Notes: generated by a model not told the origin, from the sequence alone. A DNA stretch of 32,000 nt from Puniceicoccales bacterium (GCA_031288595.1 JAITRB010000006.1:13842-45841), one strand, 5' to 3'. Numbered from the stretch's first letter, positions 429 to 26,129 are shown. Program-made: numbers and translations.

Positions 429-527
429 GCCGCCTTGGGGCCCTGTGGGCCCCGGCGCCCGCGGATGCGGGCGCTGGGCGTGAGAGGAAGGGAAAGGGAG
501 TTTCCCTTCCTCTCACGCCAAGGCGGC
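429..527 (+). repeat. Cloverleaf-like nested-palindrome intergenic repeat, copy A
   Basis: Closing stem GCCGCCTTGG (429-438)/CCAAGGCGGC (518-527). Hairpins: GGCCC-tgt-GGGCC (439-451), GCGCCCGC-ggat-GCGGGCGC (455-474), GTGAGAGGAAGGGAAA-gggag-TTTCCCTTCCTCTCAC (480-516). Lies between the convergent stops of the SNF2 gene (409) and nrdR (591). Confidence 0.8.
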
Positions 528-590
528 CCCCACTACTTCTCCAGCCCCTCCAAGAATTCCTGCCAAGTTCTTCCGAAGCGAAGCAGCGCT

Positions 591-1046
591 TCAGGATTCC
601 TCCGAAATGGCCTGGACCGCCGAGGCGAAGTCATTGGGGGTCTGGAAATTCTTATAAACACTCGCGAAGCGGATGTAGGCCATGGGATCGATCTGCCGGA
701 GCTGTTCCAGCACGATATCCCCGATCATCCGGGACGTGAGAGAGCGCTTCTCCTGTCCCTGAATGATTTGGACAATCTGCTGGTGCAACTGCCGGATGCC
801 CTCATCACTGCGAGCGTCCTTTTTAAAGGTTTTTTTCAATGCCGAGAGAATTTTCTGGGGCTCGAAGGTCTCCCGTGAACCGTCGCGCTTGAGGACGACG
901 AGATCGGCGATGCAGCAGTTCTCCAAAGTGGAGAAGCGGTAGCCGCAGCGGGAACAGCGCCGCCGGCGCCGCACCACCCTATCCTCATCCTGTACCCGGG
1001 TAGCGGTGACTTTGGTATCCGGATTCTGGCATTCGGGACAGCGCAT
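591..1046 (-). CDS. nrdR: Transcriptional repressor NrdR
   Basis: 151 aa. N-terminal zinc ribbon MRCPECQ...CSRCGYRFSTLE followed by an ATP-cone-like region (LKRDGSRETFEPQKI...). Length and layout are typical of NrdR. Confidence 0.95.
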   Translation of the reverse strand: MRCPECQNPDTKVTATRVQDEDRVVRRRRRCSRCGYRFSTLENCCIADLVVLKRDGSRETFEPQKILSALKKTFKKDARSDEGIRQLHQQIVQIIQGQEKRSLTSRMIGDIVLEQLRQIDPMAYIRFASVYKNFQTPNDFASAVQAISEES

Positions 1047-1064
1047 GGGAAAAATTAGCCGAGC

Positions 1065-1997
1065 TCAGGTCTCCTCATCGGAGGGTTCCTCCAGAAGCGC
1101 CCGGATATAGTCCTCGCGAGAGAAGGGTTGCAGGTCGTCCGCTTTTTCGCCGAGGCCGATGAAGTAGATGGGGATGTGGAGCTGGTGATAGATGCCGACC
1201 AAGGCACCCCCACGGCTCGTGCCATCCAGTTTTGTCATGATCAGACCACTGAGACCGAGGGTTTGGTGAAATTGTCGGGCCGAGCTGATGGAGTTGATCC
1301 CCAGACTGCCGTCCAGGACGAGCCAGACATGCTCGGCGGCCGGCTCGCCATGCTTCTGCAAAACTCGCCGGATCTTCAGCAGTTCCTGCATCAATCCCTC
1401 CTTGGTGTGCAGGCGTCCGGCGGTATCCAGAAGGAGGAGGTCTTTTCGGCGGTGGCAGGCCGCCCGGTAGCTGTCATAGGCCACCGCGGCCGCATCGGCC
1501 CCCTGCCGGCTGGCGACCAGCTCGAAGCCCAGGCGCCGCGACCAGATGGCGAGCTGCTCATTAGCCGCGACCCGAAAGGTATCGCAGGCTCCCACGAGCA
1601 CCTTCCTCCCCTGCGCCTGGAAAAAATGGGCGCACTTGGCTGCGCTGGTGGTCTTTCCGGAACCGTTCGTCCCAACCAGGTAGATCACTTCCGGTGGCTG
1701 ACCCTCTACGGGTGGGGCTAGGCACCCTTCCGAACCCTCCAGCAGCTGTCGGAGTACCTGGATGGTGACGGCCACAATGTCCTGCACCTGAGGATTTTCT
1801 CCAAAGGCCTGCCGAATCCGGCTGAGGATTTCCCCCGTCGTCTCGACGCCGAAGTCGGCGGCATAGAGGGCCTCCTCAAGCGATTCCAGGCTTTCCGGTC
1901 GCAGCCGGCCGGAGCGGAAAATCCCCCCCAGCTTTTGCGCCAGGTGCCGCTTCGTCTTGCTGAGCCCCTGGCAGAATTTTTTAAACAGGCCGAACAC
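1065..1997 (-). CDS. ftsY: Signal recognition particle receptor FtsY
   Basis: SRP-GTPase motifs GTNGSGKTT, DTAGRLH and TKLDGTSRGG. GTG at 1997 gives an N-terminus (M)FGLFKKFCQGLSKTK typical of short FtsY and has GGAGA about 11 nt upstream. The longest ORF extends to ATG 2096, so the start is uncertain. Confidence 0.9.
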   Translation of the reverse strand: MFGLFKKFCQGLSKTKRHLAQKLGGIFRSGRLRPESLESLEEALYAADFGVETTGEILSRIRQAFGENPQVQDIVAVTIQVLRQLLEGSEGCLAPPVEGQPPEVIYLVGTNGSGKTTSAAKCAHFFQAQGRKVLVGACDTFRVAANEQLAIWSRRLGFELVASRQGADAAAVAYDSYRAACHRRKDLLLLDTAGRLHTKEGLMQELLKIRRVLQKHGEPAAEHVWLVLDGSLGINSISSARQFHQTLGLSGLIMTKLDGTSRGGALVGIYHQLHIPIYFIGLGEKADDLQPFSREDYIRALLEEPSDEET

Positions 1998-2158
1998 CGC
2001 TTCGCTTTCTCCGCTGGAGAAATTTCTTTCCAGGGAAAATCCAAAGGGCCTCCGTCCTGAAGTCCATGCCAAAAGCGATCCTGCTACCGCCCGCATTGGC
2101 CGAATGGCAGGATAAGTAGGCTGTCTGGGTTAAATCAGCTCTGGACCAATATGGCTCG

Positions 2159-2247
2159 GCGCTGTCTTCGCAAGAGGACAACCCCAAAGGGGTTGTCCTC
2201 TTGATGCCCGCTCCGCGGGCGATTCCTCTGGAATCCGAAGACAGCGC
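2159..2247 (-). repeat. Cloverleaf-like nested-palindrome intergenic repeat, copy B (inverted hairpin order)
   Basis: Closing stem GCGCTGTCTTCG (2159-2170)/CGAAGACAGCGC (2236-2247). Hairpins: CAAGAGGACAACCCC-aaa-GGGGTTGTCCTCTTG (2171-2203), GCCCGC-tcc-GCGGGC (2206-2220), GATTCC-tct-GGAATC (2221-2235). Only 2 unpaired nt lie between helices. Confidence 0.8.
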
Positions 2248-3231
2248 TAGGCCTAACGCCCACGGACATCCCCCCATCGGCCCGGAGGCAATGGGGCTTC
2301 TTCAGCGGCTGAAAAAGAGCGAATCACCAGAGCGCTAGACCGACATCTCCCTAGACCAACCCATTTCTTGCGGGCCACCCTATTTCCCCTGCTGAGCCAT
2401 CCCCTTCCCTTCCGCCGATGAAATTTTGTAAAACCGAGATCCGCTTCCGCATCTCTAGGGCTTTCTTTCCCCCCTTTCCAGAACAGGAAAGAGGGATATC
2501 ATGATCATCAGGCATTACCCAACGGGATGCGGATGAAGCTCTCTGGACTCCTGCGCTTGAGAGCGCCTACAATTCTGCCATCGACACCACCGGCAAGAAA
2601 AAAAACAGATCTTCTTTTTTTTACGAGGAGATCCTCTTCCACCATACGGATTCTTTCCCAGGAGGCTACGCCCCTGCGACCTGCTCTCCCGCTTCGGCGG
2701 TCTCCATCCGGTCCATTTTGCCCGGGACTACGACTGGGATTCCCGGGACGTGAAAATTTTGTCCAATGGCTTCATCCTCAAACCGCTTTCCAATCATCGT
2801 CGCAAGAGGAAGCCCGCCGCGCGACCGCCATACCTCATCAACATCTTCCCTCTTGTGCCTACCAGCAAACCTCCAGAGCTTTCTCCTACTAGCCATCATC
2901 CATCATTTACTAGAATACGGCGCTCTCCTGAAAGTTCCCTATCGTGAATTCCAATTCAAGGAGGAGATGAGCAAAGAGAGATGGGCCTTTCTCCCTTCAC
3001 TGAAATCGCGCCCGCGGCGGAAGAAGTGCTGTTGAAAAAAATACTAGGACGCAGGGAAGCGCTGGGCCGTTGCTGGCGAGAGTGAAGGAGCTTTCTCCAC
3101 GCAGGATTCGCCGGGCGCTTCTCCTCACCGAAAAGGGCCCTGGGAGCGACTGCTGCCCAGCGATGACCCTTCCATCTTCTTCCGCCAAATGATCTCCAAA
3201 CAGCCGGATAAGCAGGCTGAATCTGCTCACC

Positions 3232-5592
3232 ATGTCGCTTTTTCCTTGTGCTTTTTGTTCAAACTGCCCTCATGGAGAAGCAGGGGGTTTTTCAATGGAA
3301 GATGGAGGAAGGCATGAGGAGAATTCAGGGGAGCCTGAAGAGGATTTTTCCCCATCGTCCGCAGCACTCGCTGGGCAAGCGGGCCCAGAGGATGGGGGAA
3401 AGGCCAGCGATATCCCTCTACGTGAAATCGGCGAAATCCAGGGGAATGGACATCTTTCCAGTTCTTCGTCGCCAAGATCCTCCAGTCCTTCATTGCCAAC
3501 GGAGGAGTACCCAAGACGCCTTCAGCAAGCGGAAGATCCGTGTGGGCGCAGCGAGAACGGCCGCAGACAGCACTGTGCCGAGCTGCGCGAATCCGATGCG
3601 GGGAAGCGGGTACGCCTGGCCGGCTGGGTTCAGACGATCCGCGACCACGGCGGATTGCTCTTCCTCGACCTTCGCGACCGAGAGGGGATTACCCAAATCG
3701 TCTGCGAACCGGAACGGGAGAATTTGGCGAAAAAGTGCTCGCTTCCCGGCTTCGCTCGAAGCTCCGTCGAGGCTGTCCGCACCGATGGCCAGGAACCCGA
3801 GAAATTTTCCAAAATCCTTCCTCGATTGAAGGAGGAATCCGTCCTTTCGGTCTTCGGTACGGTGCGCCTAAGGCCACCGGAAGCCCGCAACGGGAAGATG
3901 GCCACCGGTGGCATCGAGGTGCTTGCTGAAGGGATCTTCGTTCACAACCTCGCAGCAACGCTGCCCTTTCCCATCGATGACGCTGCCGATAAGGTCAACG
4001 ATGAGCTGCGGTTGAGTTACCGCTATCTCGACCTGCGCCGCCGTAAGAATTTGTGGCGCCTGCGCCTGCGCCACCGGGTCACCCAAGTCGTGCGGCACTA
4101 CCTCGATGGGCAGGGTTTTATCGAAATCGAAACGCCGTTGCTCTTCAAGAACACACCGGAAGGCGCGCGGGAATTTCTGGTGCCGAGCCGCCTTAACCCC
4201 GGGAGCTTCTACGCGCTGAACCAATCGCCGCAGCAGTACAAGCAGATGCTGATGGTGGCTGGGGTAGAGCGCTACTACTCGCTGGCCCGCTGCTTTCGGG
4301 ACGAGGATTTGCGGGCCGACCGCCAACCGGAATTCACTCAGATCGACCTGGAGATGTCCTTCATCCAACGCGAAGATATTTACGAACTCATCGAAGGCCT
4401 CCTGGCGGCGCTGTGGCGGGACGAACAGCTTCAGGAGATACGGGAAAAGCTGGGAAGAGCGGAGTTCCTCCCAGAATGGTCTTCCCCCAGCCAGAACGAG
4501 CTGAAAACGCCCTTTCGTCGGATGGATTTCGGCCTAAGATCCCAGCTCTCCGCCTCCGATGCACCTCTTCCGTTCGCCACCCCGGAAAGGGCCACGGCGA
4601 TGGACAACTACGGCTCCGACAAGCCGGATATCCGCTGGGAATTCCTCATCCAGGATGTGGGAGAGATCTTCCGGAATTCGGAATGTAAAGTTTTTCGCGA
4701 CTGCCTGGCCAAGGGCGGGGTCATCAAAGCCCTCAATCTGAAGGGTCTGGCCGACCTCACGTCGGGCGAGCATCAGCGCTGTGAGGAACTGGCACGATCG
4801 CTGGGCGCCGGCGGTTTGGCCTACATCAAGTGCACCGGCGGTGCTTGGAAATCCCCTATTGTGAAATTTTTTTCCGAAGAAGAGAAGCAGCAGCTCGGCG
4901 AGTTTTTGGGCATCGAAGAGGGCGACCTCATCCTCTTCGCGGCGGATTTTTGGGAGCGAGCCTGTGCGATTTTGGGCCGCCTTCGGCTGGAGGGCATCGG
5001 GCTCCTCCTCAAGCGAGGGAAAGATCAAAGCGCTTCGTCGCGATTTGAATTTCTCTGGGTGGAAAATTTTCCCCTGGTGACCTACCAAGAAGAGGAGAAG
5101 CGCTATGAGGCGACGCACCATCCCTTCACAGCTCCGCTACCGGAGGATGAGTGCGGTCTGATGGACGCGCTGGAAAACGTTCGCAGCCAGCACTACGACC
5201 TCGTGCTGAACGGCGTCGAGCTGGGCGGCGGGAGCATCCGGATTCACGAGGAAGAGCTCCAGCGACGCATTTTTGAAGAAGTGCTCCGAATTCCTCCGGA
5301 AGTGGTCGAAGACCGTTTTGGCTACATGCTAAAGGCATTTCGCTACGGTACACCGCCGCACGGAGGTATCGCCCTCGGTCTCGACCGGCTGGTGGCGATG
5401 CTGGCCGGCACCGACAGCATTCGGGATGTGATGGCTTTTCCCAAGACTCAGAGCGGACAGGAGTTGATGACTGGTTCTCCGACACCGGTTCCCGAACAGC
5501 TGCTGCGCGACCTGCGGATTCGGTCGACGGCCGGCGAGGGATTGAAGGGGAAAACCCGAAAAAATTCAGAAGCGGATGGGGCGGAAGGCTAG
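3232..5592 (+). CDS. aspS: Aspartate--tRNA ligase (possibly non-discriminating), unusually long ORF
   Basis: Class II aaRS motifs FRDEDLRADRQPEFTQIDLEMSF, GGGSIRIH and GTPPHGGIALGLDRLVAML. OB-fold start is HCAELRESDAGKRVRLAGWVQTIRDHGGLLFLDLRDREGI. Conserved core begins near nt 3555. The first ~100 codons are low-complexity with low third-position G+C, so the true start may be downstream (for example TTG 3493). Confidence 0.9.
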   Translation: MSLFPCAFCSNCPHGEAGGFSMEDGGRHEENSGEPEEDFSPSSAALAGQAGPEDGGKASDIPLREIGEIQGNGHLSSSSSPRSSSPSLPTEEYPRRLQQAEDPCGRSENGRRQHCAELRESDAGKRVRLAGWVQTIRDHGGLLFLDLRDREGITQIVCEPERENLAKKCSLPGFARSSVEAVRTDGQEPEKFSKILPRLKEESVLSVFGTVRLRPPEARNGKMATGGIEVLAEGIFVHNLAATLPFPIDDAADKVNDELRLSYRYLDLRRRKNLWRLRLRHRVTQVVRHYLDGQGFIEIETPLLFKNTPEGAREFLVPSRLNPGSFYALNQSPQQYKQMLMVAGVERYYSLARCFRDEDLRADRQPEFTQIDLEMSFIQREDIYELIEGLLAALWRDEQLQEIREKLGRAEFLPEWSSPSQNELKTPFRRMDFGLRSQLSASDAPLPFATPERATAMDNYGSDKPDIRWEFLIQDVGEIFRNSECKVFRDCLAKGGVIKALNLKGLADLTSGEHQRCEELARSLGAGGLAYIKCTGGAWKSPIVKFFSEEEKQQLGEFLGIEEGDLILFAADFWERACAILGRLRLEGIGLLLKRGKDQSASSRFEFLWVENFPLVTYQEEEKRYEATHHPFTAPLPEDECGLMDALENVRSQHYDLVLNGVELGGGSIRIHEEELQRRIFEEVLRIPPEVVEDRFGYMLKAFRYGTPPHGGIALGLDRLVAMLAGTDSIRDVMAFPKTQSGQELMTGSPTPVPEQLLRDLRIRSTAGEGLKGKTRKNSEADGAEG

Positions 5593-5646
5593 AATTTCGG
5601 AGTGGACATTCGGATCGATAGGAATAAAAATGGTGGGCGGATTTTT

Positions 5647-6270: not shown

Positions 6271-6315
6271 TGGGCGAAAGGAAATGGGCACTGAGGCATT
6301 GAGGACGAAAAGGCC

Positions 6316-6930: not shown

Positions 6931-7136
6931 GAACTCCATCCATTGGCTGCGCCCATGGGCCTCAGGCAAGCATTAAAAAGAATCCAAGAGACACTGAAGC
7001 TGGAAAAGCATGTCGAGAAGATCGTCCTGTTTTTTCTCATCTACAGGGAAAGCTGAAGAAGGAGCTGAAGATAAAGAGAAGGATCAAGAAACTACGGCCC
7101 AGCCTCTGGGTCCAGTGCCTCCCTAAACCCTGGCTC

Positions 7137-7610: not shown

Positions 7611-7633
7611 GTGCTATCTTTCTATCGGCAGGA

Positions 7634-7748
7634 GTGGGGGCCGCCTTTGGAAGGCTCCTGCTTCTGGCTCGCGGCGCGAGCCGCGGGAAGGAGGGAATGA
7701 AAAGGCATGCCTTTTCACTCCCTCCTTCCCGCCAAAGGCGGCCCCTAC
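7634..7748 (+). repeat. Cloverleaf-like nested-palindrome intergenic repeat, copy C
   Basis: Closing stem GGGGCCGCCTTTGG (7637-7650)/CCAAAGGCGGCCCC (7732-7745), extendable to 7634/7748. Hairpin GGCTCGC-ggc-GCGAGCC (7666-7682). A 46-nt palindrome at 7685-7730 has one A.C mismatch (7697/7718). The first short hairpin is not evident. Lies between convergent stops 7610 and 7828. Confidence 0.75.
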
Positions 7749-7827
7749 CCAGAACAGCCAGAAGCCCTCGACGCCACGGTCCTCTCTCAGAACGGCCGAC
7801 AACGCCTCTCTTTTTACGTTTCTCTTT

Positions 7828-9570
7828 TCAGGAAGAGAGGATGTCCGGCTGGAAGGAAACTTTCAGGAGATAGGGCTTGCCCGGCTGGAGAAAGATGGGG
7901 CTTGGCCGCGAGAGGATCTGAAGGAAGTGGAGGGGGCCATAGGCCGTTCGGTACTGAGGATCGCCATGCACGGTGACGAGCTCCTGCCAACTCATGCCGA
8001 AGTCGTCCTTTTCAACCACTGCCCGCAGGCTCTCTGGCCCCAAGCGGAATCCGGATGAAGCGTGTAGCGAATGGGGCGCCGACAGCGCGATGACATAGCG
8101 CAGCTGCTCCAGCTTGAGCCGATTGGGAGCGGTATAGAGAAATTCCGACACGATGCGGTCCTCGAAAAATGTCCAGGTCACCCGGCAGCTGGCCAGGCCG
8201 GGGACGATGAGCTCCCGATTACTGATCAGCTCCGGCTGCTCGTAGCGGAAGAAAAATGAGCGTTTCAGGCCCATGCCGCTGCTGCAGTTCCTGCCGTAGA
8301 ACGAGGGGATAAAACTCTGTCCCTCTATCATCAGCTCCGGCTGGAGGATGGGCAGATAGGTTTCGGCCGGCGCGTCGAAAATCCCAGGGCAATGCGGAAA
8401 TGCCAGGCTTTCGCCCAGTCCCTTTCCCTGGCTCGAGAGGAGCGGCAGAGTATAGTGCGTCCTCTGTCCCGCGTTGCGGTAGATAAAGATCCCCTGTTCC
8501 TTCTTCGGCGTCTGGATGAACTGGATGAAACGCCCTCCACTCTTCTCTTCCGGATCGGTACAGGCCGACGGCCACTGGAGTTTCCTGGCCAGCTCCGCCC
8601 ATTGACAGAGGTAGCGTACCGCATCGAAATTAGCCTTGCGCGTCGAATAAGCCGGTGCCGCATTGCGCTCTCCATCGCGGATGAGCATCGTCCCATGCCC
8701 TTGGTCGATGTAGTGAGAGAACAGGCAGTGGAAGAGTCGGCGCAGCAGGCCGACATAGAGTCCCTGCTGCTCGGGGGCTATCCATCCTGCGGACAAGGCG
8801 GACAGGACAGCGTGGAGTACGAGGAGCTGGGAATAGAATCCCATCGTCGTCCCGTAGGCCCAGGCAAGCCCGTCCTGGCGGATGAGCTCAGGCAAGAGGC
8901 GAAGGTATCCGGCCATCTGCGTCCGAATGCCCGGGAGGAGATTCTGGCTGACCTCTCCGTTGATGTGTCTCTGCAGTACCTGCTGCAGGAAATTCAGTGT
9001 CCACAAGCCGATTAAGTCGTAGCTGCCACCGATGCCCGCCTCTGGAGCGTGGTCGAGAAAGCCACCGGACGTGTTTTCCCGCGCCCCTTCCAGAAAGGAC
9101 GTGAGGACGCGCGTCGTCTCATCCTTCTTCGTAAAGCCCATGCCGAAAGCTATAAGGACCCGTGCGAGGTTACAGGCTGCCTGTGGATTATGGTGCTGGA
9201 GCAAGCGCTTCTGAAAACGTTCCTGCGTTTCCGTATTGAGCTGCTGCCAGAGAGGATTTTGGGATGGCGTCGCCCCGAAGCAGAAGAGGGCCAGGGCTAG
9301 GTAATTCAACTCCATGTCCTGAAGGCTTTCATCGCGCAGCTGGGATTGAAAGCAGCGGGCCGCCAACGGGATCAGGACAAAGTCGCCGAGGTGGGAATCC
9401 CGCGTGATCCGACAATACTCTCCAAGGGCAAGGGCCGCATAGGCAGCATCCGTCTTGACCAGGGCCTCGCCTTCGACCGGCCGTATCTCCCCGTTATCGG
9501 TGATGGCCGGTAGGCTCTGCCCCAAGATTGCCCGAGCGAGATCTAGGCATTGCTGGGAGAAATTCTGCAT
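7828..9570 (-). CDS. Hypothetical protein (~580 aa), function unknown
   Basis: Long uninterrupted ORF with host-like codon bias and no signal peptide at MQNFSQQCLDLARAIL. ATG 9570 is preferred over TTG 9642. I recognise no motif. Confidence 0.7.
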   Translation of the reverse strand: MQNFSQQCLDLARAILGQSLPAITDNGEIRPVEGEALVKTDAAYAALALGEYCRITRDSHLGDFVLIPLAARCFQSQLRDESLQDMELNYLALALFCFGATPSQNPLWQQLNTETQERFQKRLLQHHNPQAACNLARVLIAFGMGFTKKDETTRVLTSFLEGARENTSGGFLDHAPEAGIGGSYDLIGLWTLNFLQQVLQRHINGEVSQNLLPGIRTQMAGYLRLLPELIRQDGLAWAYGTTMGFYSQLLVLHAVLSALSAGWIAPEQQGLYVGLLRRLFHCLFSHYIDQGHGTMLIRDGERNAAPAYSTRKANFDAVRYLCQWAELARKLQWPSACTDPEEKSGGRFIQFIQTPKKEQGIFIYRNAGQRTHYTLPLLSSQGKGLGESLAFPHCPGIFDAPAETYLPILQPELMIEGQSFIPSFYGRNCSSGMGLKRSFFFRYEQPELISNRELIVPGLASCRVTWTFFEDRIVSEFLYTAPNRLKLEQLRYVIALSAPHSLHASSGFRLGPESLRAVVEKDDFGMSWQELVTVHGDPQYRTAYGPLHFLQILSRPSPIFLQPGKPYLLKVSFQPDILSS

Positions 9571-9684
9571 ATATGACTTTCCCCGTCCGCCGACGGAGGT
9601 AAACTTTTCCCAGAAAAAAAAGGCCGTTCCGCGCGACGGCAAGCGTTCTTTGCAAATTTTCTCACGGAGAGGCTCATTTTGAGC

Positions 9685-13566: not shown

Positions 13567-14199
13567 ATGCCTCGGCATCCATACCTCCTGCTTTGCCCCC
13601 ATCGGCTAATGGGAGCCGGATTCCTCCTGGGCCTCCTGCTCCTGGGCCCTCTTCCCGAGAGCTGCGGTTTTCCCGGGCGAAGCATGGCCGGCAGGGCTCC
13701 GGCTCAGTATGCCCAGGGCTGCAGAACTATTTCCTTCGATGTCCTCCTTCTTCATAAATCGGAGAACGACTTCCGAAGCCTGACGGAATGGCTTACGGGA
13801 CGTCGGGTCCCGGAGGGACGCTGGGCGCTGCGGAGTGATGGGGCCCGCCGCGGGGGCTTCTACTGGGTACTGCGCTTTTCGCGACCTCTGTCCTCCCGGG
13901 AAGCCTGTTGCTGCGCTGTGCTAAAATACCTCCGCCGCGGAAGTCTCGAGGCCCAGGAACGGCGCTTTGAATTCGGCAAGTCGAGACCGCGACGGGCCGG
14001 CGAACTCTACCTCGGCATGACGGATGACGCCTCGCTCCGGAATCCCGATGACGTGGTGGCCTGGTGCGTGGAACTGCGGGATGCATCGGGAAAAGTGACG
14101 GCGGAGAAGCGGAGCTTCCTCTGGAGCACTGATGAGGCCGATGCGAGCCGGGAGGACGAAGGGCCGGAGAGGAACGAGGCTCGGCCAGCGGAGGATTGA
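13567..14199 (+). CDS. Hypothetical protein (weak call)
   Basis: 210-codon ORF with host-like codon pattern. It has a hydrophobic N-terminus (GAGFLLGLLLLGP) and an acidic C-terminal tail, with no recognisable motif. The overlapping minus-strand ORFs look like Pro/Arg-rich shadows. Confidence 0.4.
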   Translation: MPRHPYLLLCPHRLMGAGFLLGLLLLGPLPESCGFPGRSMAGRAPAQYAQGCRTISFDVLLLHKSENDFRSLTEWLTGRRVPEGRWALRSDGARRGGFYWVLRFSRPLSSREACCCAVLKYLRRGSLEAQERRFEFGKSRPRRAGELYLGMTDDASLRNPDDVVAWCVELRDASGKVTAEKRSFLWSTDEADASREDEGPERNEARPAED

Positions 14200-14233: not shown

Positions 14234-14327
14234 TGCCGTCTTTGGAGCCCCGCAGGGGCTCGCCCGCGGAGCGGGCATCCCGGAGGGAGGGAAGCAGAAG
14301 CTTCCCTCCCTCCGGGCAAAGACGGCA
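14234..14327 (+). repeat. Cloverleaf-like nested-palindrome intergenic repeat, copy D
   Basis: Closing stem TGCCGTCTTTG (14234-14244)/CAAAGACGGCA (14317-14327). Hairpins: AGCCCC-gca-GGGGCT (14246-14260), GCCCGC-gga-GCGGGC (14262-14276), CCGGAGGGAGGGAAGC-agaa-GCTTCCCTCCCTCCGG (14280-14315). Confidence 0.8.
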
Positions 14328-15617: not shown

Positions 15618-16487
15618 ATGGATTTGTTTCACCTGAGAGGACTCATGCTATTCCTGATGATCCTGGGTTTTTCCCTGATGCTGTGCGATTGCTTTTGGAA
15701 CCTTTGGCTTCTTTGGGTCGGCCGCATGGCTCTGCGCCTCAGCGGAGTAGGGCTCTTGAGCGTCCTGCTCCACGCCTGCCTGGAGGGCCGCATGAGCTGG
15801 GCGGTACCCTCGGTCCTCATCCTCGCCACGATTTTTCTCCTCGAGAGTATCTATTTCTGGGGAATGACGGGGAGAATACAGGCCCAGCAGTGGCCCACAA
15901 TCCTGCAGTACGAAGCGCTGAATGAAAGGATTTCCTGGCCCATCCACTGGCGTTTTCGCGCCCTGAGGAACTACTTCCGCCGCGAGCGTTTCCAGAACGC
16001 GGGATGCTTTCGCCTGTCCTTCCTCGGCACTCCGCTGATGCTCAATGTGGTCATGCTGGATGCCAGTCGGCGGATCCGGCTGGAGTTTTTTTTCCACATG
16101 GGCCCCCGAGGGATTCGGCAGGTGCGGTGTGCATTGAGCTCGCAGGTAGAGGAGAAGGAATGGCTGGTGACAGACAACAGGCAGCTCCCCCCGGGCGGGT
16201 GGATGCCGGCGGCCTGGCGGCTCAAGCGCTACGGTTTCGCCTCTCCTCAGACCCTATTGCGGCGGCACCGGCGGCGACTGCAGCGGCTGGGAAGCATCTG
16301 TGGGGCATGGGAAGTCTCCCATCTCCCGGAAACGCTTAATCGGGAGCAGGAGTTTTGGGCAGAGGAGAATCTTCGGCACGGATTTTGGGAAAAATCCTCC
16401 GACGGGCGGCAGTACACTCTCTCGGAGGAGGGCCGCTACCGCCTCTGGAAGTCGATGCTGTTCCGGCATACGCTGGGCCTGGGCTGA
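15618..16487 (+). CDS. Hypothetical membrane protein
   Basis: ATG 15618 gives three hydrophobic helices (LMLFLMILGFSLML, GVGLLSVLLHA, VPSVLILATIFLL) followed by a Trp/Arg-rich soluble region. No recognisable motif. The longest ORF (15489) would overlap the divergent mlaE-like start. Confidence 0.55.
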   Translation: MDLFHLRGLMLFLMILGFSLMLCDCFWNLWLLWVGRMALRLSGVGLLSVLLHACLEGRMSWAVPSVLILATIFLLESIYFWGMTGRIQAQQWPTILQYEALNERISWPIHWRFRALRNYFRRERFQNAGCFRLSFLGTPLMLNVVMLDASRRIRLEFFFHMGPRGIRQVRCALSSQVEEKEWLVTDNRQLPPGGWMPAAWRLKRYGFASPQTLLRRHRRRLQRLGSICGAWEVSHLPETLNREQEFWAEENLRHGFWEKSSDGRQYTLSEEGRYRLWKSMLFRHTLGLG

Positions 16488-16491
16488 GAAG

Positions 16492-17115
16492 ATGAGCGAC
16501 GGACCCTATCTCTGCCTTGATGCCGCCACGATCTTTCCCCAGATGGGCATTCTCGAGGGGGGCCGATGGTCGTACTTCAGGCGCTTTCCCCATGCCCGGA
16601 TGGAAGTGCTATGGGAGCCGATTCGGGAGTATTTCCCCCGATTTCCCTGGGCCGGCTTTATCTACAATTCCGGCCCCAGCGGGACGCTGGGCCTGCACAG
16701 CGTTCTGATGATGATCCGCGTTTGGAAGAGCCTTCCGGCCTATCGCTCCGTGCCGGTGGGGCACTACAACGGTCTCCAAATCGCCTCGCGGCTCGAATCT
16801 AAATGCCCGCTGCTCGCCCAGCTGCGGCGGGGAGAGCTCTGGTGGGCAAGGAGAGGGGAAGTGCTCAGGCTCTCTCCGGAAGAGGGGGGAATTCTGGCCG
16901 AGGCACGGCGCTTTCCAACCCAAACCCTGGCTCCACCAGCCTTGATGACCTACAAAGCGCTGGATTACGACCTGCAGGCAGCGGCGGCGCTGATGCTCCC
17001 ATCTGTTCGCTGGGACGATGCCTGGCGGACGGAAACCGACTCCCCTATCCCCAGCTTTGTTCCCTGGGACGGAAAGCGCCACGGCAGCGCTTTTCCCCCG
17101 ATAGTTCTTGGGTGA
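16492..17115 (+). CDS. Divergent TsaB (YeaZ)-like protein, possible tRNA t6A biosynthesis partner
   Basis: ATG 16492 lies 4 nt after the upstream stop. The N-terminus YLCLDAATIFPQMGILEGG and the segment FIYNSGPSGTLGLHSVLMMIRVW resemble the TsaB pattern (ILAIDTAT..., GPGSFTGLRIG...) but are degenerate. ~208 aa. Confidence 0.45.
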   Translation: MSDGPYLCLDAATIFPQMGILEGGRWSYFRRFPHARMEVLWEPIREYFPRFPWAGFIYNSGPSGTLGLHSVLMMIRVWKSLPAYRSVPVGHYNGLQIASRLESKCPLLAQLRRGELWWARRGEVLRLSPEEGGILAEARRFPTQTLAPPALMTYKALDYDLQAAAALMLPSVRWDDAWRTETDSPIPSFVPWDGKRHGSAFPPIVLG

Positions 17116-17154: not shown

Positions 17155-17256
17155 GCTGCCGCCTTTGAGCCCCAAAGGGGCTTCGGCCCGCTGCGCGGGC
17201 CGCTTTCCCGGCGCGGAAAACTTCGTTTTCCGCACCGGGAAAGCAAAGGCGGCAGC
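17155..17256 (+). repeat. Cloverleaf-like nested-palindrome intergenic repeat, copy G
   Basis: Closing stem GCTGCCGCCTTTG (17155-17167)/CAAAGGCGGCAGC (17244-17256). Hairpins: AGCCCC-aaa-GGGGCT (17168-17182), GGCCCGC-tgc-GCGGGCC (17185-17201), TTTCCCGGCGCGGAAAAC-ttc-GTTTTCCGCACCGGGAAA (17204-17242, one C.A mismatch). Confidence 0.8.
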
Positions 17257-20377: not shown

Positions 20378-20405
20378 AAAGAGGGGAAACGCCGTGGAAC
20401 GAAGC

Positions 20406-21233: not shown

Positions 21234-21246
21234 AGATGTTTAAAAT

Positions 21247-21417
21247 TCACGGATGTTCCTGCCGGTGCTCCCATCGCTGGAGTTGTTTCCAGAGCCAGAG
21301 ACTGACGAAAGTCAAAATCATGGGAATGAGGCGGCCGAGGAAAAAACGGACGAAGAGACGGTCGATCAGATCCAATCCCCTGAGGCAGTTTTCTCCAAAA
21401 AGACCGATGCGATTCAC
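21247..21417 (-). CDS. Candidate small membrane protein (56 codons), not in supplied ORF track
   Basis: A GTG start overlaps the ndk stop (GTGA). Translation: (M)NRIGLFGENCLRGLDLIDRLFVRFFLGRLIPMILTFVSLWLWKQLQRWEHRQEHP, with one hydrophobic helix. By my count, about 36 of 56 third positions are G/C, which is host-like. The stop lies 13 nt before the ymdB-like ATG. Confidence 0.35.
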   Translation of the reverse strand: MNRIGLFGENCLRGLDLIDRLFVRFFLGRLIPMILTFVSLWLWKQLQRWEHRQEHP

Positions 21418-21887
21418 CTCTCAATCTCACTCTCAAGCACACAGATATCGGAGTGAGCTCCTCTGGGTTGGAGAGCAAAAATCTCATCCGGTTTGAAGAA
21501 GCGCCTGATCTCGGCAGCCGCCGTCTGGAGGCTATCAGAAGCATGGGCGATGTTGCGCATCTTATCCGTTCCCCAAGTACGGCGAATCGTGCCAGGTGCC
21601 GCTATGCGGGAATCGGTATCCCCCAAAAGCGTGCGGACGCAGGCGATAGCATCGGGACCCTCGAGAATCAGGATGATGACTGGCCCCGCGCTCATGAACT
21701 CCACGATTTCCTGGAAAAAGGGCAGGTGGGCGAGATGGGCGTAATGCTCGAGCCAAACGGCATCCGGGACCTCCTTCATCTTGCAGGCGATGAGGCATAA
21801 TCCGGCCTCCTCGAAGCGAGCGATGACCTCCCCGACATGTCGGTTCTCCAAACAGTCAGGTTTCAAAATGATGAGCGTGCGTTCCAT
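21414..21887 (-). CDS. ndk: Nucleoside diphosphate kinase
   Basis: MERTLIILKPD..., active-site NIAHASDS, and GTIRRTWG. ATG 21887 matches the usual Ndk N-terminus. The longest ORF (GTG 22160) adds 91 Pro/Ser-rich residues that look non-coding. Confidence 0.9.
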   Translation of the reverse strand: MERTLIILKPDCLENRHVGEVIARFEEAGLCLIACKMKEVPDAVWLEHYAHLAHLPFFQEIVEFMSAGPVIILILEGPDAIACVRTLLGDTDSRIAAPGTIRRTWGTDKMRNIAHASDSLQTAAAEIRRFFKPDEIFALQPRGAHSDICVLESEIER

Positions 21888-22156
21888 AGGCTGTGTTGTT
21901 TTGGGCTGTTCTAAAGGACTGGACGGCGGCGCTTCCCTCGCCGGGGAAACGACCGCAATGGGAGGATTCCCCTCTTTCCCCATCAGGACCGATGCGCTGA
22001 TCGGAGCTGCCTGCACGGAAGGGAGACTCGGCAGCGTCGTGACTTGGGAATTCCCCTCTAGCCAGGAACCAGCACTCAGGGTGATACCGGCAAAGCCGTA
22101 GCTCCAAACCTTGCTGAGGGCGCGGGAGAAATAATTCTTCCTATGTGGAGATGGAA

Positions 22157-22594
22157 TCACGAGACCTTCCCTGCCGACACCCTTGCGTCCGTTTTCAGAA
22201 ACGACTTCGGAGCCGATGGGACGCCACGGGTCTTATTCTCCCAGCTCTTCTTCTCCTTCACCTTGACGGCCTCCTTACCGATGCGCTGGCGCAGGTAGTA
22301 GAGCTTGGCCCGACGCATGGGAACGCTCTCCCGTTCCACCTCGATTTTCTCGATCCTCGGCGAGTGCAGCGCAAATACCCGTTCGATTCCCTCACCGAAG
22401 GATACCCGTCGCACCGTGAATGAGGCATGAATGCCGGAGCCGCGGCGCGCGATGACGATGCCCGCAAATACCTGGATGCGCTCCTTCTCTCCCTCACGGA
22501 CTTTCACGTGGACCCGTACCCCGTCGCCAATTTTGAACACATCGCGATTGGGTTTCAGCTGCTCCTGCGTGATCTTCTGAATAAGGACATTCAT
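22157..22594 (-). CDS. rplS: 50S ribosomal protein L19
   Basis: [57 protein letters not shown] lies upstream of tandem ATGs at 22597 and 22594. Basic C-terminal extension. Confidence 0.95.
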
Positions 22595-22644
22595 CATACA
22601 CCTCCTGGACTCGACGCGCAAACTAGTGAGAGACCGGAGGGAAA

Positions 22645-23355
22645 TCAATCCTTTTCGCCGCGTTTTTGCCAGATCTCCCAGAGCTCGGGCCGCCGTGCCC
22701 GGGTACGGGCAAGGCGCTGCTCTTGGCGCCAATCCCGAATGGCCCGGTGATGACCGGAGAGGAGAATTGGCGGTACTGCCCAGCTGCGAAAGATCTCCGG
22801 GCGGGTGTACTGGGGGAAGGACAGGAGGCCCTCGGCAAAACTGTCCTGCTCCAGGGATTCCTCGTCGCCCAGAACCTCGGGGATGTGGCGCACGAGCGCG
22901 TCGATGATGACCGCTGCCGCCAGTGTTCCGTTGCTGAGAACATAGTCACCGATGGAAATTTCCTCATCTACCAGATGCTCCCGCACGCGTTCATCGATGC
23001 CCTCGTAATGGCCTGAGAGGAAGATGAGCCGTTCCATTCGGGCCAGTTCTCGAGCCCTGGAGGTGGAGAATGGCCTTCCTTCCGGAGAGGGATAGATTAC
23101 CCAGGCAGAAGGGGCATCCTTTCTCAGTTCCTCCACCGCTTCGAAGAGCGGCTCCGGCTTTAGGAGCATACCTGCTCCGCCCCCGAAGGGACGCTCGTCG
23201 GTGACGGCGTGCTTCCCGCGGGCCCAGCGGCGGAGAGAGTGGACGGAGATGTGGACGAGGCCTTTTTTTTGGGCTCGGGCTAGGATGCTGGTCGCCAGAA
23301 AGCCCGTGAGCATTTCGGGAAAGAGGGAAACGACATCGATGGAAGCTGCTCCCAT
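22645..23355 (-). CDS. trmD: tRNA (guanine37-N1)-methyltransferase TrmD
   Basis: [37 protein letters not shown] and [17 protein letters not shown] 23355 is preferred over GTG 23409. Confidence 0.95.
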
Positions 23356-23409
23356 TTCCCAGAGAGAAATCAAATGCGGGCGCTGGCGGCCGGCGTGTGC
23401 CGGACGCAC

Positions 23410-23664
23410 TCAGGAGGCCTCGCGGCGCTTCTGGACGAGCAGGGTGCGGACGGTATCCGTCGGCTTTGCCCCCACGCCCATCCAGTAGGTGGCCCGTTCC
23501 AAACTGAGGGTACAGAAGGGCGTCTGGCCCCGGGCCTGTGGGTTATAGTTGCCGATCTTTTCGACAAAACGCCCATCTCGCCGGGCCTTCGATTCCGCCA
23601 CCACAATCCGATAGGCCGGATGATGGATAGAACCGTGACGCTGCAATCTGATCTTCAGGGCCAT
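23410..23664 (-). CDS. rpsP: 30S ribosomal protein S16
   Basis: MALKIRLQRHGSIHHPAYRIVVAESKARRDGRFVEKIGNYNP, 84 aa. Confidence 0.96.
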   Translation of the reverse strand: MALKIRLQRHGSIHHPAYRIVVAESKARRDGRFVEKIGNYNPQARGQTPFCTLSLERATYWMGVGAKPTDTVRTLLVQKRREAS

Positions 23665-23818
23665 AGTTTATCTGAGATTCCAGGTGGAAAGAACAGAAAT
23701 CTCTTCCACTGTCAAGACCCTTCTGCAGGAACTTGAGGTTTCTCCTTTCTTCCCACCGCAAAGGGATCCTTTCCACAGCACGAGAGGGAAGAGTCGTCCC
23801 TCGGCAAAATCTCCTCTT

Positions 23819-23894
23819 TGGTGCGAGCGAAGAGGTTCGAACTCTCAACATCCACCTTGGCAAGGTGGCACTCTGCCAATTGAGTTACGCTCGC
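23819..23894 (-). tRNA. tRNA-Gly (anticodon GCC), CCA encoded
   Basis: Reverse complement GCGAGCGTAACTCAATTGGCAGAGTGCCACCTTGCCAAGGTGGATGTTGAGAGTTCGAACCTCTTCGCTCGCACCA folds as a cloverleaf. Acceptor GCGAGCG/CGCTCGC, D stem ACTC/GAGT, anticodon stem CCACC/GGTGG with loop TTGCCAA, T loop TTCGAAC. Confidence 0.95.
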
Positions 23895-24012
23895 GGTTTA
23901 CGAGCGCTAGAAGTGGCCATCGGTCCTGTTCCGTCAAGGCAAAATGGTCCAGACGATACACAAAGGCCTCCCAGCTCGTCGAAGGACGCCCTAGGCTCGG
24001 GAGCTGCTGTGC

Positions 24013-24106
24013 GCCGCCTTGGCGAGAGGGAAAGGAAAAATTCTTTTCCTTTCCCTCTCGCAGGGCCCGCGCAGCGGGCCAGAGCCCTTCGGGCTCCCAA
24101 GGCGGC
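24013..24106 (-). repeat. Cloverleaf-like nested-palindrome intergenic repeat, copy E (inverted hairpin order)
   Basis: Closing stem GCCGCCTTGG (24013-24022)/CCAAGGCGGC (24097-24106), identical to copy A. Hairpins: CGAGAGGGAAAGGAAAA-attc-TTTTCCTTTCCCTCTCG (24023-24060), GGCCCGC-gca-GCGGGCC (24064-24080), GAGCCC-ttc-GGGCTC (24082-24096). Confidence 0.8.
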
Positions 24107-24251
24107 CCACTGTTCCCATCGGCACCGGAGAGGGCTTAAATTCCACATCTTCTAGCCGTTCCCCCAGGCTCTAATTCCCTGCTTTGTTCCCTGAGAAGCT
24201 AATAGCATTGACAAGGCAGGATGAGGGAATTCCCTTCTGCACTTTTCTGAA

Positions 24252-24336
24252 GCTCAGGTGGTGGAATCGGCAGACACGCCAGACTTAGGATCTGGTGCCG
24301 CAAGGCGTGAGGGTTCAAATCCCTCCCCGAGCACCA
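24252..24336 (+). tRNA. tRNA-Leu (anticodon TAG), long variable arm, CCA encoded
   Basis: GCTCAGGTGGTGGAATCGGCAGACACGCCAGACTTAGGATCTGGTGCCGCAAGGCGTGAGGGTTCAAATCCCTCCCCGAGCACCA. Anticodon stem CCAGA/TCTGG with loop CTTAGGA, variable arm GCC-gcaa-GGC, T arm GAGGG-TTCAAAT-CCCTC. The acceptor stem has one A5.C68 mismatch. Confidence 0.9.
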
Positions 24337-24376
24337 GTGATATTTCCCTCTTTTCTCCCGAAAATTGGAAAATCTA

Positions 24377-24423
24377 TTGAAGAGCCCATTCCTCTCATCG
24401 TGAAGAGAGGCTGAGCTCTTCGA
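24377..24423. terminator. Possible bidirectional stem-loop between tRNA-Leu (+) and DoxX-like gene (-)
   Basis: Outer stem TTGAAGAGC (24377-24385)/GCTCTTCGA (24415-24423, one G.U). Inner stem CCTCTC (24391-24396)/GAGAGG (24405-24410). T-containing tracts follow on both strands, but there is no clean U-run. Confidence 0.3.
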
Positions 24424-24476
24424 GGAAAATCTTCTTTTCCAAAGCTGGGCTATCCCCTTGAAAGGAACCCGATTCC

Positions 24477-24926
24477 CTAGGGTTTGGACCTACTGACTGG
24501 ATTCCCTTCACCGTCGGCGCTCCAGCGACCTGGGGATGTGAAGAGAGAGGACAGGGCAACACCTGAAAGGACGATATGGTAGAGCACATTCGGATCGGTG
24601 TAGGGCAGGCCGCTGCTGTTCCGGAGGAAGAGAACTTGCGAAAGGGCGATGAAAAAGAGCACCGCGCAGGCGCTGCGGAAGTAGAAACCTACCAGGACAC
24701 AGAAGCCGCCCAGAGTCGTCAGGGCTGCGACGCTGCCACCCAATAGTCCGATACAGGACTGACCCTCGCAGCCAAAGAGAAAGCTCGCTGCGCTCGCCAG
24801 CTGCTGCAGCGACTCCGGATGGACAAAGGCCAGAATACCTTGGGTCGTCAGCAGCGTCCCTACCGTGGCGCGCAGGATGAATTTCGAGAGCTGATCCCGA
24901 AAGAAGAATTGCGAGAGCGAGTACAT
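24477..24926 (-). CDS. DoxX-family-like small membrane protein
   Basis: 149 aa with four hydrophobic segments. The C-terminal SPGRWSADG resembles the DoxX G.G..S.D ending. Family assignment is tentative. Confidence 0.6.
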   Translation of the reverse strand: MYSLSQFFFRDQLSKFILRATVGTLLTTQGILAFVHPESLQQLASAASFLFGCEGQSCIGLLGGSVAALTTLGGFCVLVGFYFRSACAVLFFIALSQVLFLRNSSGLPYTDPNVLYHIVLSGVALSSLFTSPGRWSADGEGNPVSRSKP

Positions 24927-24969
24927 ATTGACGTTGGAAGGAAATTTTTATTTTTTGTAAGTCAAGCCG

Positions 24970-25230
24970 ATGGGTGATTTTTTCCTCCAGGTAATCCCGA
25001 ATGCGTCCCGTAATCAGGTAGTGAGCTGTGCGGACGGTATGCTGAAGCTCAAGGTCCAGGCCCCACCGGAGAATGGACGGGCGAACCGGGCTGTCATCGA
25101 ACTCTTGACTCAATACTTCGGCATTTCCAAGCATGCCATCCGCCTGATCTCCGGCGAGAAATCCCGGGAGAAAAGGGTGCGCATCGAAGGCATAGAAGCG
25201 GAATCAGGCATTGGGAAACGGCCGTTCTGA
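24970..25230 (+). CDS. DUF167 (YggU/UPF0235) family protein
   Basis: 86 aa. VIPNASRNQV...LKLKVQAPPENGRANRAVIELLTQYFGISKHAIRLISGEKSREKRVRI matches the YggU signature (ApP.dGkAN ... G..sr.K). Confidence 0.8.
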   Translation: MGDFFLQVIPNASRNQVVSCADGMLKLKVQAPPENGRANRAVIELLTQYFGISKHAIRLISGEKSREKRVRIEGIEAESGIGKRPF

Positions 25231-25255
25231 TTTTTTCTGGTCCAGATTTCATTCG

Positions 25256-25996
25256 ATGGAAAGGGAGCCGGAACGCCTGCAGAAATTTCTCGCTCGAGCC
25301 GGTGTCGCTGCGCGGAGGAAGGGAGAGGCCCTGATTCGGGAAGGGAGGGTCAAGGTCAATGGGAGCATGGCCGTGTTGGGCCAATCCGTCTTGGCCGGTC
25401 GAGACCACGTTTCGGTTGATGGGAAGCCGATTTCATCCCACCTTCGACAGCGGCAGCGATGGGTCTTCCTCTTCCATAAGCCGCGCGGCGTGGTCTGTAC
25501 CCATGGGGATCCCCGCTTTCCCCAGAGAACGGTTTTCGATTTTCTCCCACCGAAGTACCGGCAGGAGCGTTTTTTCTTCTGTGGACGTCTGGATAAGGAG
25601 AGCCAGGGCATGCTGCTGTTGACGAATGACGGGGCTTTCGTCCAGCAGGTGAGCCACCCAAGTGCCCGTATTCCCAAGATCTACCACGTTACTCTGCAGC
25701 GGGCCATGGAGCCCGGGGATCTGAAGCGCCTGTCGATAGGCATTGAGGATGACGGCGAGCAACTGTTGGCCGAGCGGGTCCGCTTCCTTCCCTCGGCAAG
25801 TCTTGGGCCACAGCGCCACCTGGAAATCCAGCTGAGACAGGGGAAGAAGCGCGAGATCCGGCGCATGCTGGAAGCGCTGGGCCATCGGGTCCATCGCCTG
25901 AAACGCATCCGCATCGGCAGGCTCGAGATGCGAGGCTTAGCCCCGGGCCAACTCCGCCTCCTGGATGAGAGGGAAATCGCCCTCCTCTTCACCTGA
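25256..25996 (+). CDS. rluB: RsuA/RluB-family rRNA pseudouridine synthase with S4 domain
   Basis: S4-like ERLQKFLARAGVAARRKGEALIREGRVKVNG. Catalytic GRLDKESQGMLLLTNDG. KIYHVTL and LRQGKKREIRRMLEALG. ATG 25256 is preferred over TTG 25211. Confidence 0.9.
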   Translation: MEREPERLQKFLARAGVAARRKGEALIREGRVKVNGSMAVLGQSVLAGRDHVSVDGKPISSHLRQRQRWVFLFHKPRGVVCTHGDPRFPQRTVFDFLPPKYRQERFFFCGRLDKESQGMLLLTNDGAFVQQVSHPSARIPKIYHVTLQRAMEPGDLKRLSIGIEDDGEQLLAERVRFLPSASLGPQRHLEIQLRQGKKREIRRMLEALGHRVHRLKRIRIGRLEMRGLAPGQLRLLDEREIALLFT

Positions 25997-26034
25997 GGCG
26001 TGCATCAGGGAGCCTGAGACCCAGGGCCACGCGC

Positions 26035-26129
26035 GATGGCCCTTTGCAAAGCAAAGCCGGCGCCGGCGCTCCGCGCCGGTGCCTAGGTCCCATCCCCCTT
26101 CTGGGAGAAGGGGGATGGGACCGGCCATC
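26035..26129 (+). repeat. Nested-palindrome element with the same architecture but divergent sequence, copy F
   Basis: Closing stem GATGGCC (26035-26041)/GGCCATC (26123-26129), partly extendable. Hairpins: CTTTGC-aaa-GCAAAG (26042-26056), CCGGCGC-N9-GCGCCGG (26057-26079), GGTCCCATCCCCCTTC-tggga-GAAGGGGGATGGGACC (26086-26122). Confidence 0.6.

Follow-up and report, generated by a model that had tools for sequence, protein, structure and literature searches.

The 32,000-nt stretch of Puniceicoccales bacterium DNA analyzed here (GCA_031288595.1 JAITRB010000006.1:13842-45841, hereafter the window) carries, between positions 429 and 26129, seven copies (A to G, Table 1) of a palindromic element of 90 to 115 nt, in which a closing stem surrounds three consecutive hairpins. 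Either strand, taken alone, folds into a four-helix junction that is close to perfect and leaves almost no linker unpaired. The element, which contains no open reading frame (ORF), is a previously uncatalogued and unusually elaborate relative of the repetitive extragenic palindrome (REP) and MITE (miniature inverted-repeat transposable elements) types of repeats; the kind itself is known, while the architecture is new. We consider it probable that the copies represent a lineage-restricted, non-coding and non-autonomous palindromic element of the REP/REPIN/MITE kind, whose conserved feature is the single-stranded fold.

An earlier note, made from the window sequence, had described a repeated nested-palindrome element with a four-helix junction, and the computed folds reproduced this junction. 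At all seven sites, folding to minimum free energy with DNA and with RNA parameters gave a closing stem around three consecutive hairpins; the "two or three" hairpins given before are thus always three, the first one being degenerate in copy C, and the closing stems measured 7 to 16 bp rather than 7 to 14 bp, with 0 to 4 unpaired linker bases. The z-scores of the seven copies ranged from -9.1 to -12.9 in comparison to dinucleotide shuffles, none of 200 shuffles folding equally well, and a 110-nt sliding fold over the whole window showed clusters more than 3 standard deviations below the mean only at the seven copy sites. An eighth structured site (23371-23480), weaker in the sliding fold, was not significant when refolded alone (z = -1.9) and is unrelated. 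The closing-stem pattern GCCGYCTTKG-N65-95-CMAAGRCGGC was found five times in the window in comparison to 0.00 expected, and the hairpin GCCCGC-N3-5-GCGGGC five times in comparison to 0.06 expected, always within an element.

The copies were parsed from their folds and all oriented alike to derive the helix order, which is outer flank, closing arm, H1, H2, H3 and closing arm. The terminal inverted repeat (T)GGG-GCCGYCTTKG ... CMAAGRCGGC-CCC(A) makes up a closing stem of 10 to 16 bp; the outer flank of the closing arm is (T)GGG in GC-rich genomes and GTTT in low-GC genomes, and the core closing arm is GCCGCCTTTG, with the variants GCTGGC, GCTGTC, GCCGTC and GCCGGC, the complement of each being present on the opposite arm. 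H1 has 6 to 7 bp and a 3-nt loop, and is formed by GAGCCC, GGGCCC, GATTCC, GATCCC, GATGCC or GAGCCT, each with its complement; H2, which is (G)GCCCGC with a 3- to 4-nt loop, is the most conserved part of the element; and H3, with 15 to 22 bp and a 3- to 5-nt loop, is highly variable and fast-evolving, its 5' arm being usually purine-rich and its 3' arm pyrimidine-rich. The loops vary in sequence, and neither they nor the junction contain any conserved unpaired nucleotide. In copy A, for example, the closing stem is followed by H1 (GGGGCCC), H2 (GGCGCCCGC) and a 19-bp H3, while copy B, which is reversed on the + strand, shows H3, H2 and then H1' GATTCC within the closing stem GCGCTGTCTTCG; in copy C, H2 is the variant GGCTCGC.

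Since the loops of reversed copies are reverse complements (e.g., TGC in comparison to GCA), the element occurs in both orientations, as had been claimed before. Two copies indeed carry the hairpins in reversed order on the + strand, these being the ones at 2159 and 24013 (B and F), and the letters given to them in the earlier note were shifted. The same shift affected the hairpins assigned there: AGCCCC-N3-GGGGCT is present in the copies at 14234 and 17155, with GAGCCC in the copy at 24013, and the GCCCGC hairpin does occur in five copies, which are those at 429, 2159, 14234, 17155 and 24013. Six window copies belong to a single sequence family, as stated before; copy G (26035), which had been credited with the shared hairpins, has only the architecture in common with them, every helix differing in sequence, and consists of a 7-bp closing stem (GATGGCC) followed by hairpins of 6, 11 and 17 bp. 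The inner hairpins were also considered as independent small repeats nested in a carrier, and this was rejected because H2 was never found outside an element, which shows the element to be a single unit.

Sixteen oriented copies were aligned with MAFFT, a consensus was calculated by RNAalifold, and a covariance model (R1) was built; R1 was trained on an alignment that included the six main window copies, which therefore match it by construction. The consensus gave the same four-helix junction. The percentage of paired cells was 92.2% in comparison to 74.6% for the shuffled control and 43% to 55% with the partners slid, the number of pairs changed on both sides was 27 of 39 in comparison to a shuffled mean of 18.3, and the covariation score was 0.508 in comparison to 0.177 in the control, none of 500 shuffles reaching any of the pairing or covariation measures. 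The covariation came from all four helices, with H2 nearly invariant; in the closing stem, whose arms are about 80 nt apart, 6 of 12 pairs covary and 95% are paired. When R1 was run on the window, the six main copies were found at 74 to 96 bits, four on the + strand and two on the - strand, and there was no further copy; copy G was not found.

G-U pairs were scarce on both strands, at about 1% (9 of 778 pairs for one strand, 11 of 783 for the other), and the folding energies of the two strands were near-equal. The pairing is thus strand-symmetric and poor in G-U, unlike that of typical strand-specific structured RNAs, and these two observations mean that Watson-Crick complementarity is what is constrained, as read from both strands. 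In addition, the distant closing arms can pair only when single-stranded and yet they covary, so that the relevant form is single-stranded DNA, or RNA in either direction; extrusion of a cruciform from duplex DNA alone would not account for the covariation of the closing arms.

The earlier note had suggested searching related genomes with a covariance model, and such a search did find further copies: outside the window, 14 more copies matching the model and an ortholog of copy G were obtained, all on Puniceicoccales contigs (Table 1). A scan of the genome collection with the closing-stem pattern gave 118 stretches, each of which was judged by refolding; those found genuine were on two contigs of Puniceicoccales metagenome-assembled genomes (MAGs), L018 and L105, and the others were chance inverted repeats. 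More loci came from contigs encoding close relatives of ClpX or PgpA. The contig of a more distant relative, L242, whose ClpX is 60% identical, had no R1 copy in 14 kb. The density was 7 copies per 32 kb in the window and 11 per about 33 kb in the protein-anchored loci of relatives, or approximately one per 3 to 5 kb, and by extrapolation from these sampled loci it is plausible that there are hundreds of copies genome-wide.

In 1.37 Mb of unrelated bacterial loci that had been pre-selected for similar patterns, no R1 copy was accepted except for one match of 31 bits (E 6e-4) in a Frigoriglobus locus, L002, itself pre-selected on the closing-stem pattern. The eight pattern matches on viral contigs were all rejected by the covariance model, and in a metagenome scan for the closing stem plus H2, none of the 120 stretches listed had the second closing arm or the fold, these being chance matches on G+C-rich contigs. 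No Rfam family was placed on the copies at the gathering threshold, and a scan by E-value gave sub-threshold microRNA-hairpin noise. The element is restricted to one clade of Puniceicoccales (Verrucomicrobiota). Within this clade, some short-read (Logan) contigs were seen to end within a copy (L241 at 1432-1476, L254 at 2410-2473 and L256 at 1766-1847); the closest relatives are known solely from contigs of 2 to 7 kb, and the assemblies of the clade are apparently broken by copies.

All seven window copies fall outside genes supported by Pfam or codon bias, which agrees with the earlier claim that they are intergenic. Four of them (A, C, D and G) lie between convergent genes, one (E) between co-directional genes, and two between divergent genes (B upstream of ftsY and F between tRNAs). 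Copies occupy four of the six convergent junctions in the window, the unoccupied ones being 20377/20406 and 24336/24477, and five of the seven copies begin 20 to 40 nt past a stop codon (Table 1), showing that the copies are biased towards gene 3' ends and convergent junctions. For the copies tallied in the window and the relatives, no bias was found in orientation with respect to the nearest upstream gene (about seven forward and five reverse). Copies D and E were also considered as products of a duplicated gene, which was rejected as their upstream ORFs are not paralogous (E = 1) and their flanks do not align.

Two window copies have orthologs at the same site in a relative. The ortholog of copy G is at 1628-1733 of L244, downstream of clpX, the two ClpX proteins being 90% identical; about 9% of the stem positions differ in comparison to 53% of the loop and linker positions, two H3 pairs are fully compensated (C-G to T-A and T-A to G-C), and the intergenic DNA around the pair is unalignable. 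The ortholog of copy C is at 10548-10658 of L255, 32 nt past pgpA, with PgpA 64% identical and a genome GC content of 48% in comparison to 58% for the window; like copy C it carries H2 in the rare GCTCGC form, the gene order aspS-ompH-pgsA-pgpA is the same, and a GGG>AAA change in one H3 arm is mirrored by CCC>TTT in the other. A second, truncated ortholog of copy C begins at about 2826 of L253, at the contig end. Structural maintenance is not absolute, since H1 of window copy C has decayed.

Copies were also found to be near-identical at unrelated loci, which points to copying. The copies L018_1221 and L018_2527 are 94% identical with unrelated outer flanks, and L244_1808, downstream of clpX, is 96% identical to L253_341, between aspS and ompH, again with unrelated outer flanks. 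In the low-GC lineage, seven copies cluster at 68% to 92% identity (mostly about 80% to 90%) and have one H3 in common, in comparison to 56% to 73% mutual identity for the window copies. L253 further has an insertion with one copy directly after the aspS stop, absent at window 5590-5600 and in L255, which on this comparison is a lineage-specific gain. The region between the 94%-identical copies on L018 was considered as a possible transposase, and this was rejected as the ORF there encodes a small secreted-protein paralog.

Some other sequences were observed at the same loci. On L018, two tandem paralogous small proteins (407-901 and 1526-2032, both on the - strand) with a similar hydrophobic N-terminus (MKKLFKIPSIKALVLGQLLLGSL...) are interleaved with the element copies, and the remainder of the contig (3773-5545) encodes a large protein of unknown function. 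The motif TAGAGGGYGYCGTCAAAT, absent from the window, occurs in L244 as an inverted pair about 320 nt apart (1758-1775, + strand, and 2053-2076, - strand), which encloses one four-helix copy and an AT-rich stretch, and once in L253 (265-281, + strand), exactly at the aspS stop codon and beside the inserted four-helix copy. The motif may belong, as terminal repeat, to a different MITE or insertion sequence (IS) that either uses the same insertion sites as the four-helix element or carries it along. In the 3300042618 genome, a run of six to seven T precedes the closing stem (TTTTTTTGGGGCCGGC; L244 1800-1815, L253 440-455 and 2815-2826). The 96%-identical pair also has sequence in common past the closing stem, about 12 nt at one end and about 20 nt at the other, and the copied unit in this genome may therefore be about 140 nt, exceeding the junction itself.

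The statement of the earlier note that the element matches no known family stood insofar as Rfam gave nothing relevant and ARAGORN only two real tRNAs; its kind is already known, as REP, REPIN, bacterial interspersed mosaic element (BIME) and MITE. Like the REP/REPIN-RAYT systems (PMC3733652; Bertels & Rainey 2011, PMC3116915), the element consists of G+C-rich extragenic palindromes at high density and in both orientations, located mostly downstream of genes or between convergent genes, with subfamilies within a genome, vertical persistence and single-strand folding. REPs are mostly located between convergent or unidirectional ORFs (PMC3733652), and the element likewise is extragenic and mostly in convergent or co-directional gaps, with a high copy number that is extrapolated as far as the whole genome is concerned. 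The host is in the same class (Opitutae/Opitutia) as Opitutus terrae, a species with many GTAG/GTGG-tagged REPs (Di Nocera et al. 2013, PMC3733652), and GTGGG/CCCAC is found just outside the closing stem in some copies of the element. REPIN-RAYT systems persist vertically over very long times (bioRxiv 10.1101/2021.07.10.451892). A REPIN, however, is two inverted REPs forming one long hairpin, while the terminal repeats of the element (GCCGCCTTTG and its complement) are not self-complementary hairpins and enclose three distinct hairpins; unlike in REPs and REPINs, the tag is inconsistent and no RAYT was found in the window or the relative loci examined.

Like the element, BIMEs and REP325/naRNA4 of E. 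coli are intergenic modules composed of palindromes, and they have been proposed to act in supercoiling, nucleoid organisation, termination and mRNA stabilisation (PMC2817692, PMC4550694). BIMEs are alternating REP arrays with typed linkers, whereas the element is a single nested unit with a closing stem, its inner hairpins are unlike one another and unlike the terminal repeats, and there is no sequence in common. Similar to the MITEs Correia/NEMIS, ERIC/IRU, RUP, BOX, Nezha and SMAG (PMC3184786), which are about 100 to 150 bp and often co-transcribed (PMC3184786), the element is small, without coding capacity, intergenic, present in both orientations and bounded by terminal inverted repeats; these MITEs form one long imperfect hairpin and usually have target-site duplications and a parent IS, while the element has three independent, perfectly paired and covarying hairpins. 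A nested-palindrome appearance is also known from the T. roseum GTAG-23 within CCGSSCC...GGSSCGG and from A. variabilis GTAG-15 dimers inside long palindromes (PMC3733652), but the inner and outer palindromes there are separate families that can occur alone, in contrast to an H2 that never does and an architecture fixed across genomes. The cyanobacterial HIP1 was rejected: GCGATCGC adjoins copies A and E, yet occurs only once in the window. No four-helix-junction repeat of this kind is described in the literature covered by our search.

The lineage restriction, the subfamilies and the near-identical copies at unrelated loci suggest a vertically inherited and occasionally copied REP/REPIN/MITE-like element, and so do both orientations, the terminal inverted repeats, the G+C-rich hairpins and the preference for gene 3' ends. 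HUH/Y1 enzymes act on folded single-stranded DNA. By analogy with these, the element would be copied via a single-stranded DNA intermediate by a trans-encoded enzyme that recognises structure, the obvious candidate being a HUH/Y1 RAYT-like transposase. The folding requirement, possibly aided by template-switch repair within palindromes, would keep the helices Watson-Crick on both strands, and copies would survive chiefly just downstream of genes, where they would be harmless or else useful as stable 3'-end RNA structures, in which capacity the element may additionally act.

Several observations weigh against this mobile origin. A REP is one hairpin of 20 to 40 bp with a GTAG or CGTC tag, in comparison to four helices in 90 to 115 nt, and GTGGG/GTAGG directly adjoins one or both sides of the closing stem in only about 8 of 20 copies, all in GC-rich genomes, GGGTTT taking its place beside the closing stem in low-GC genomes. 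Neither the window nor any of the relative loci examined showed a transposase or RAYT gene, no Y1_Tnp domain was detected by Pfam scans in any window protein, and no parent IS with matching terminal repeats was present in about 110 kb of related sequence. There was neither a target-site duplication nor a clean pair of empty and filled sites, and the flanks showed no consistent direct repeat; the only comparison of a filled with an empty site, that of L253 with the window, is confounded because the insertion brought in about 75 nt of other sequence as well. At their divergence the window copies are old, and nothing in the window genome indicates recent activity. That copies are retained for long at orthologous sites with their stems conserved is explained by a host function no less well than by a selfish element.

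Such a host function could be that of an RNA, namely a bidirectional, U-tract-independent terminator or a block against 3'->5' exonucleases, which convergent genes would share, with the repetitiveness explained either by duplication plus selection or by an ancient spread and later domestication, and we regard this as a possible but tentative explanation. The positions past stop codons and at convergent junctions are in its favor, and so are the orthologous copies, which stand as conserved islands amid diverged intergenic DNA; strand-symmetric pairing free of G-U is what a structure working in both directions of transcription needs. Sites with a hairpin plus a T run were at or below chance in the window (19 in comparison to 19.1 expected, and 4 in comparison to 11.4 expected), so that the copies are the only obvious candidates for transcript 3'-end structures there, and the lineage may not depend on canonical intrinsic terminators. 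On the other hand, no T run follows any of the seven copies, and none of the copies was picked up by the terminator-like scans, so the copies lack the U-tract of an intrinsic (Rho-independent) terminator; the loops and junction hold no conserved unpaired nucleotides, and the two convergent junctions named above have no copy. The copies at 2158 and 24013 and at 15169 of L255 are upstream of divergent genes, with no 3' end to serve, and a role as terminator or stabiliser is thus not the whole story; the near-identical copies at unrelated loci demand a copying process regardless. In a rather unlikely reading, the four-helix junction itself would be the functional unit, either as the substrate of a novel transposase or recombinase that acts on single-stranded DNA and recognises a junction instead of a hairpin, or as a mobile, strand-symmetric and U-tract-independent bidirectional terminator that the clade would use where others have canonical intrinsic ones.

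We consider it still less likely that the copies are architectural sites at the DNA level, similar to BIMEs or REP325, at which gyrase, HU/IHF-like or junction-binding proteins would relieve or insulate supercoiling between transcription units. The pairing is purely Watson-Crick on both strands, H3 is a perfect palindrome of 15 to 22 bp with a 3- to 5-nt loop that could extrude as a cruciform, and convergent junctions, at which positive supercoils build up, are enriched in copies; as precedents, REP/BIME sites bind gyrase, IHF and Pol I (PMC2817692) and the cruciform-forming naRNA4 from REP325 acts with HU (PMC4550694). However, the closing-stem arms covary although, being about 80 nt apart, they pair only in single-stranded nucleic acid, the copies are not regularly spaced, and no protein partner of the element is known. 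Finally, it is highly improbable that the copies are self-transcribed genes for small structured RNAs (tRNA-like, Y-RNA-like, retron-ncRNA-like or riboswitch-like), for the resemblance of the junction to a cloverleaf, or to a retron msr-msd with its a1/a2 closing stem, its short hairpins and its single long one, is only superficial, and the retron, tRNA-like and riboswitch readings were rejected on the lack of a nearby reverse transcriptase gene, of Rfam or ARAGORN matches and of conserved loop or junction nucleotides, to which are added the near-absence of G-U pairs with equal folding of both strands, both orientations relative to neighboring genes, a promoter signal not above chance, and a density of one copy per 3 to 5 kb.

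If the abundance of the sampled loci holds, the palindromic element would make up a few percent of these genomes, which would explain the fragmented assemblies of the clade with contigs ending within copies, and together with its covariance model it would serve as a ready marker when uncultured Puniceicoccales are binned or strain-typed. The element also extends the REP/REPIN/MITE repertoire to a compound four-helix architecture, kept by compensatory change across a 10-point shift in genome GC and 64% to 90% protein identity. Its strict Watson-Crick strand symmetry makes it a clean test case for single-stranded DNA recognition in comparison to bidirectional RNA function or self-correcting palindrome repair. 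Although the class is familiar, three features stand out, namely a four-way junction that is perfect, covariation that is strand-symmetric and spans deep divergence, and a possible link to termination.

Table 1. Element copies and RNA genes in the window, and loci of relatives with copies
Feature	Position	Strand	Support	Context
Copy A	429-527	+	folds z -12.0 and -9.6; R1 74.1 bits at 422-534 (+)	20 nt past stop of helicase-C-terminus ORF (149-409, +); 64 nt from nrdR stop (591, -); flanking genes convergent
Copy B	2158-2248	-	folds z -11.6 and -11.1; R1 80.1 bits at 2154-2252 (-)	62 nt 5' of ftsY start, within about 1.1 kb without coding signal
Copy C	7634-7748	+	DNA and RNA folds; R1 80.4 bits	24 nt past pgpA stop; 80 nt from stop of convergent gene 7828-9642 (-)
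Copy D	14234-14327	+	folds z -12.9 and -12.3; R1 89.7 bits	35 nt past ORF 13567-14199 (+; coding phase checked); 50 nt from mlaE stop (-); convergent
Copy E	17155-17256	+	DNA and RNA folds; R1 96.0 bits	40 nt past ORF 16300-17115 (+); 87 nt 5' of moxR (+); flanking genes co-directional
Copy F	24013-24106	-	DNA and RNA folds; R1 93.7 bits (-)	between divergent tRNA-Gly(GCC) (-) and tRNA-Leu(TAG) (+)
Copy G	26035-26129	+	folds z -11.2 and -11.0; no R1 match at E<=1	39 nt past rluB-like stop; 264 nt from clpX stop; flanking genes convergent
tRNA-Gly(GCC)	23819-23894	-	Rfam cmscan, ARAGORN	
tRNA-Leu(TAG)	24252-24336	+	Rfam cmscan, ARAGORN	
6S (SsrS) RNA	30912-31096	+	Rfam 56.1 bits (gathering score 46.4)	divergent from secA
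L018			3 copies	MAG contig
L105			2 copies	MAG contig
L240			4 copies in 7.2 kb	ClpX/PgpA-anchored contig
L244			2 copies in 2.1 kb	ClpX/PgpA-anchored contig
L253			2 copies in 3 kb	ClpX/PgpA-anchored contig
L255			3 copies in 20.5 kb	ClpX/PgpA-anchored contig

The window is an ordinary chromosomal stretch. The gene map was based on Pfam scans, codon-position GC, Rfam and ARAGORN, and the order of the genes is helicase C-terminus, nrdR, ftsY, aspS, ompH, pgsA, pgpA, a gene of 604 aa, secretin, marC, mlaE, moxR, a DUF58 gene, ksgA, ymdB, ndk, rplS, trmD, tRNA-Gly, tRNA-Leu, an rluB-like gene, clpX, secA and 6S RNA. At the Rfam gathering threshold, cmscan found only the two tRNAs and the 6S RNA as RNA genes. 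In homolog searches the annotated relatives of ClpX and PgpA were from Puniceicoccales, Verrucomicrobiota, and an identical ClpX was recorded only on one 4.7-kb Logan contig.

Next to copy B, the region 2249-3231, about 1 kb 5' of aspS, has neither an ORF supported by codon bias nor an Rfam match, a non-coding length that is unusual given the compactness of the surrounding region; the ORFs 2527-2892 and 2766-3035 both have non-coding GC1/2/3 patterns, and the former was on this basis excluded as a gene. The aspS ORF (3232-5592) encodes 786 aa in comparison to 595 aa in the L255 ortholog, with the first Pfam domain starting from residue 127, and the ndk ORF (21414-22160) encodes 248 aa, of which the NDK domain covers residues 93-227. 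Both ORFs were probably over-called upstream of the true start codons and do not represent genuine N-terminal extensions.

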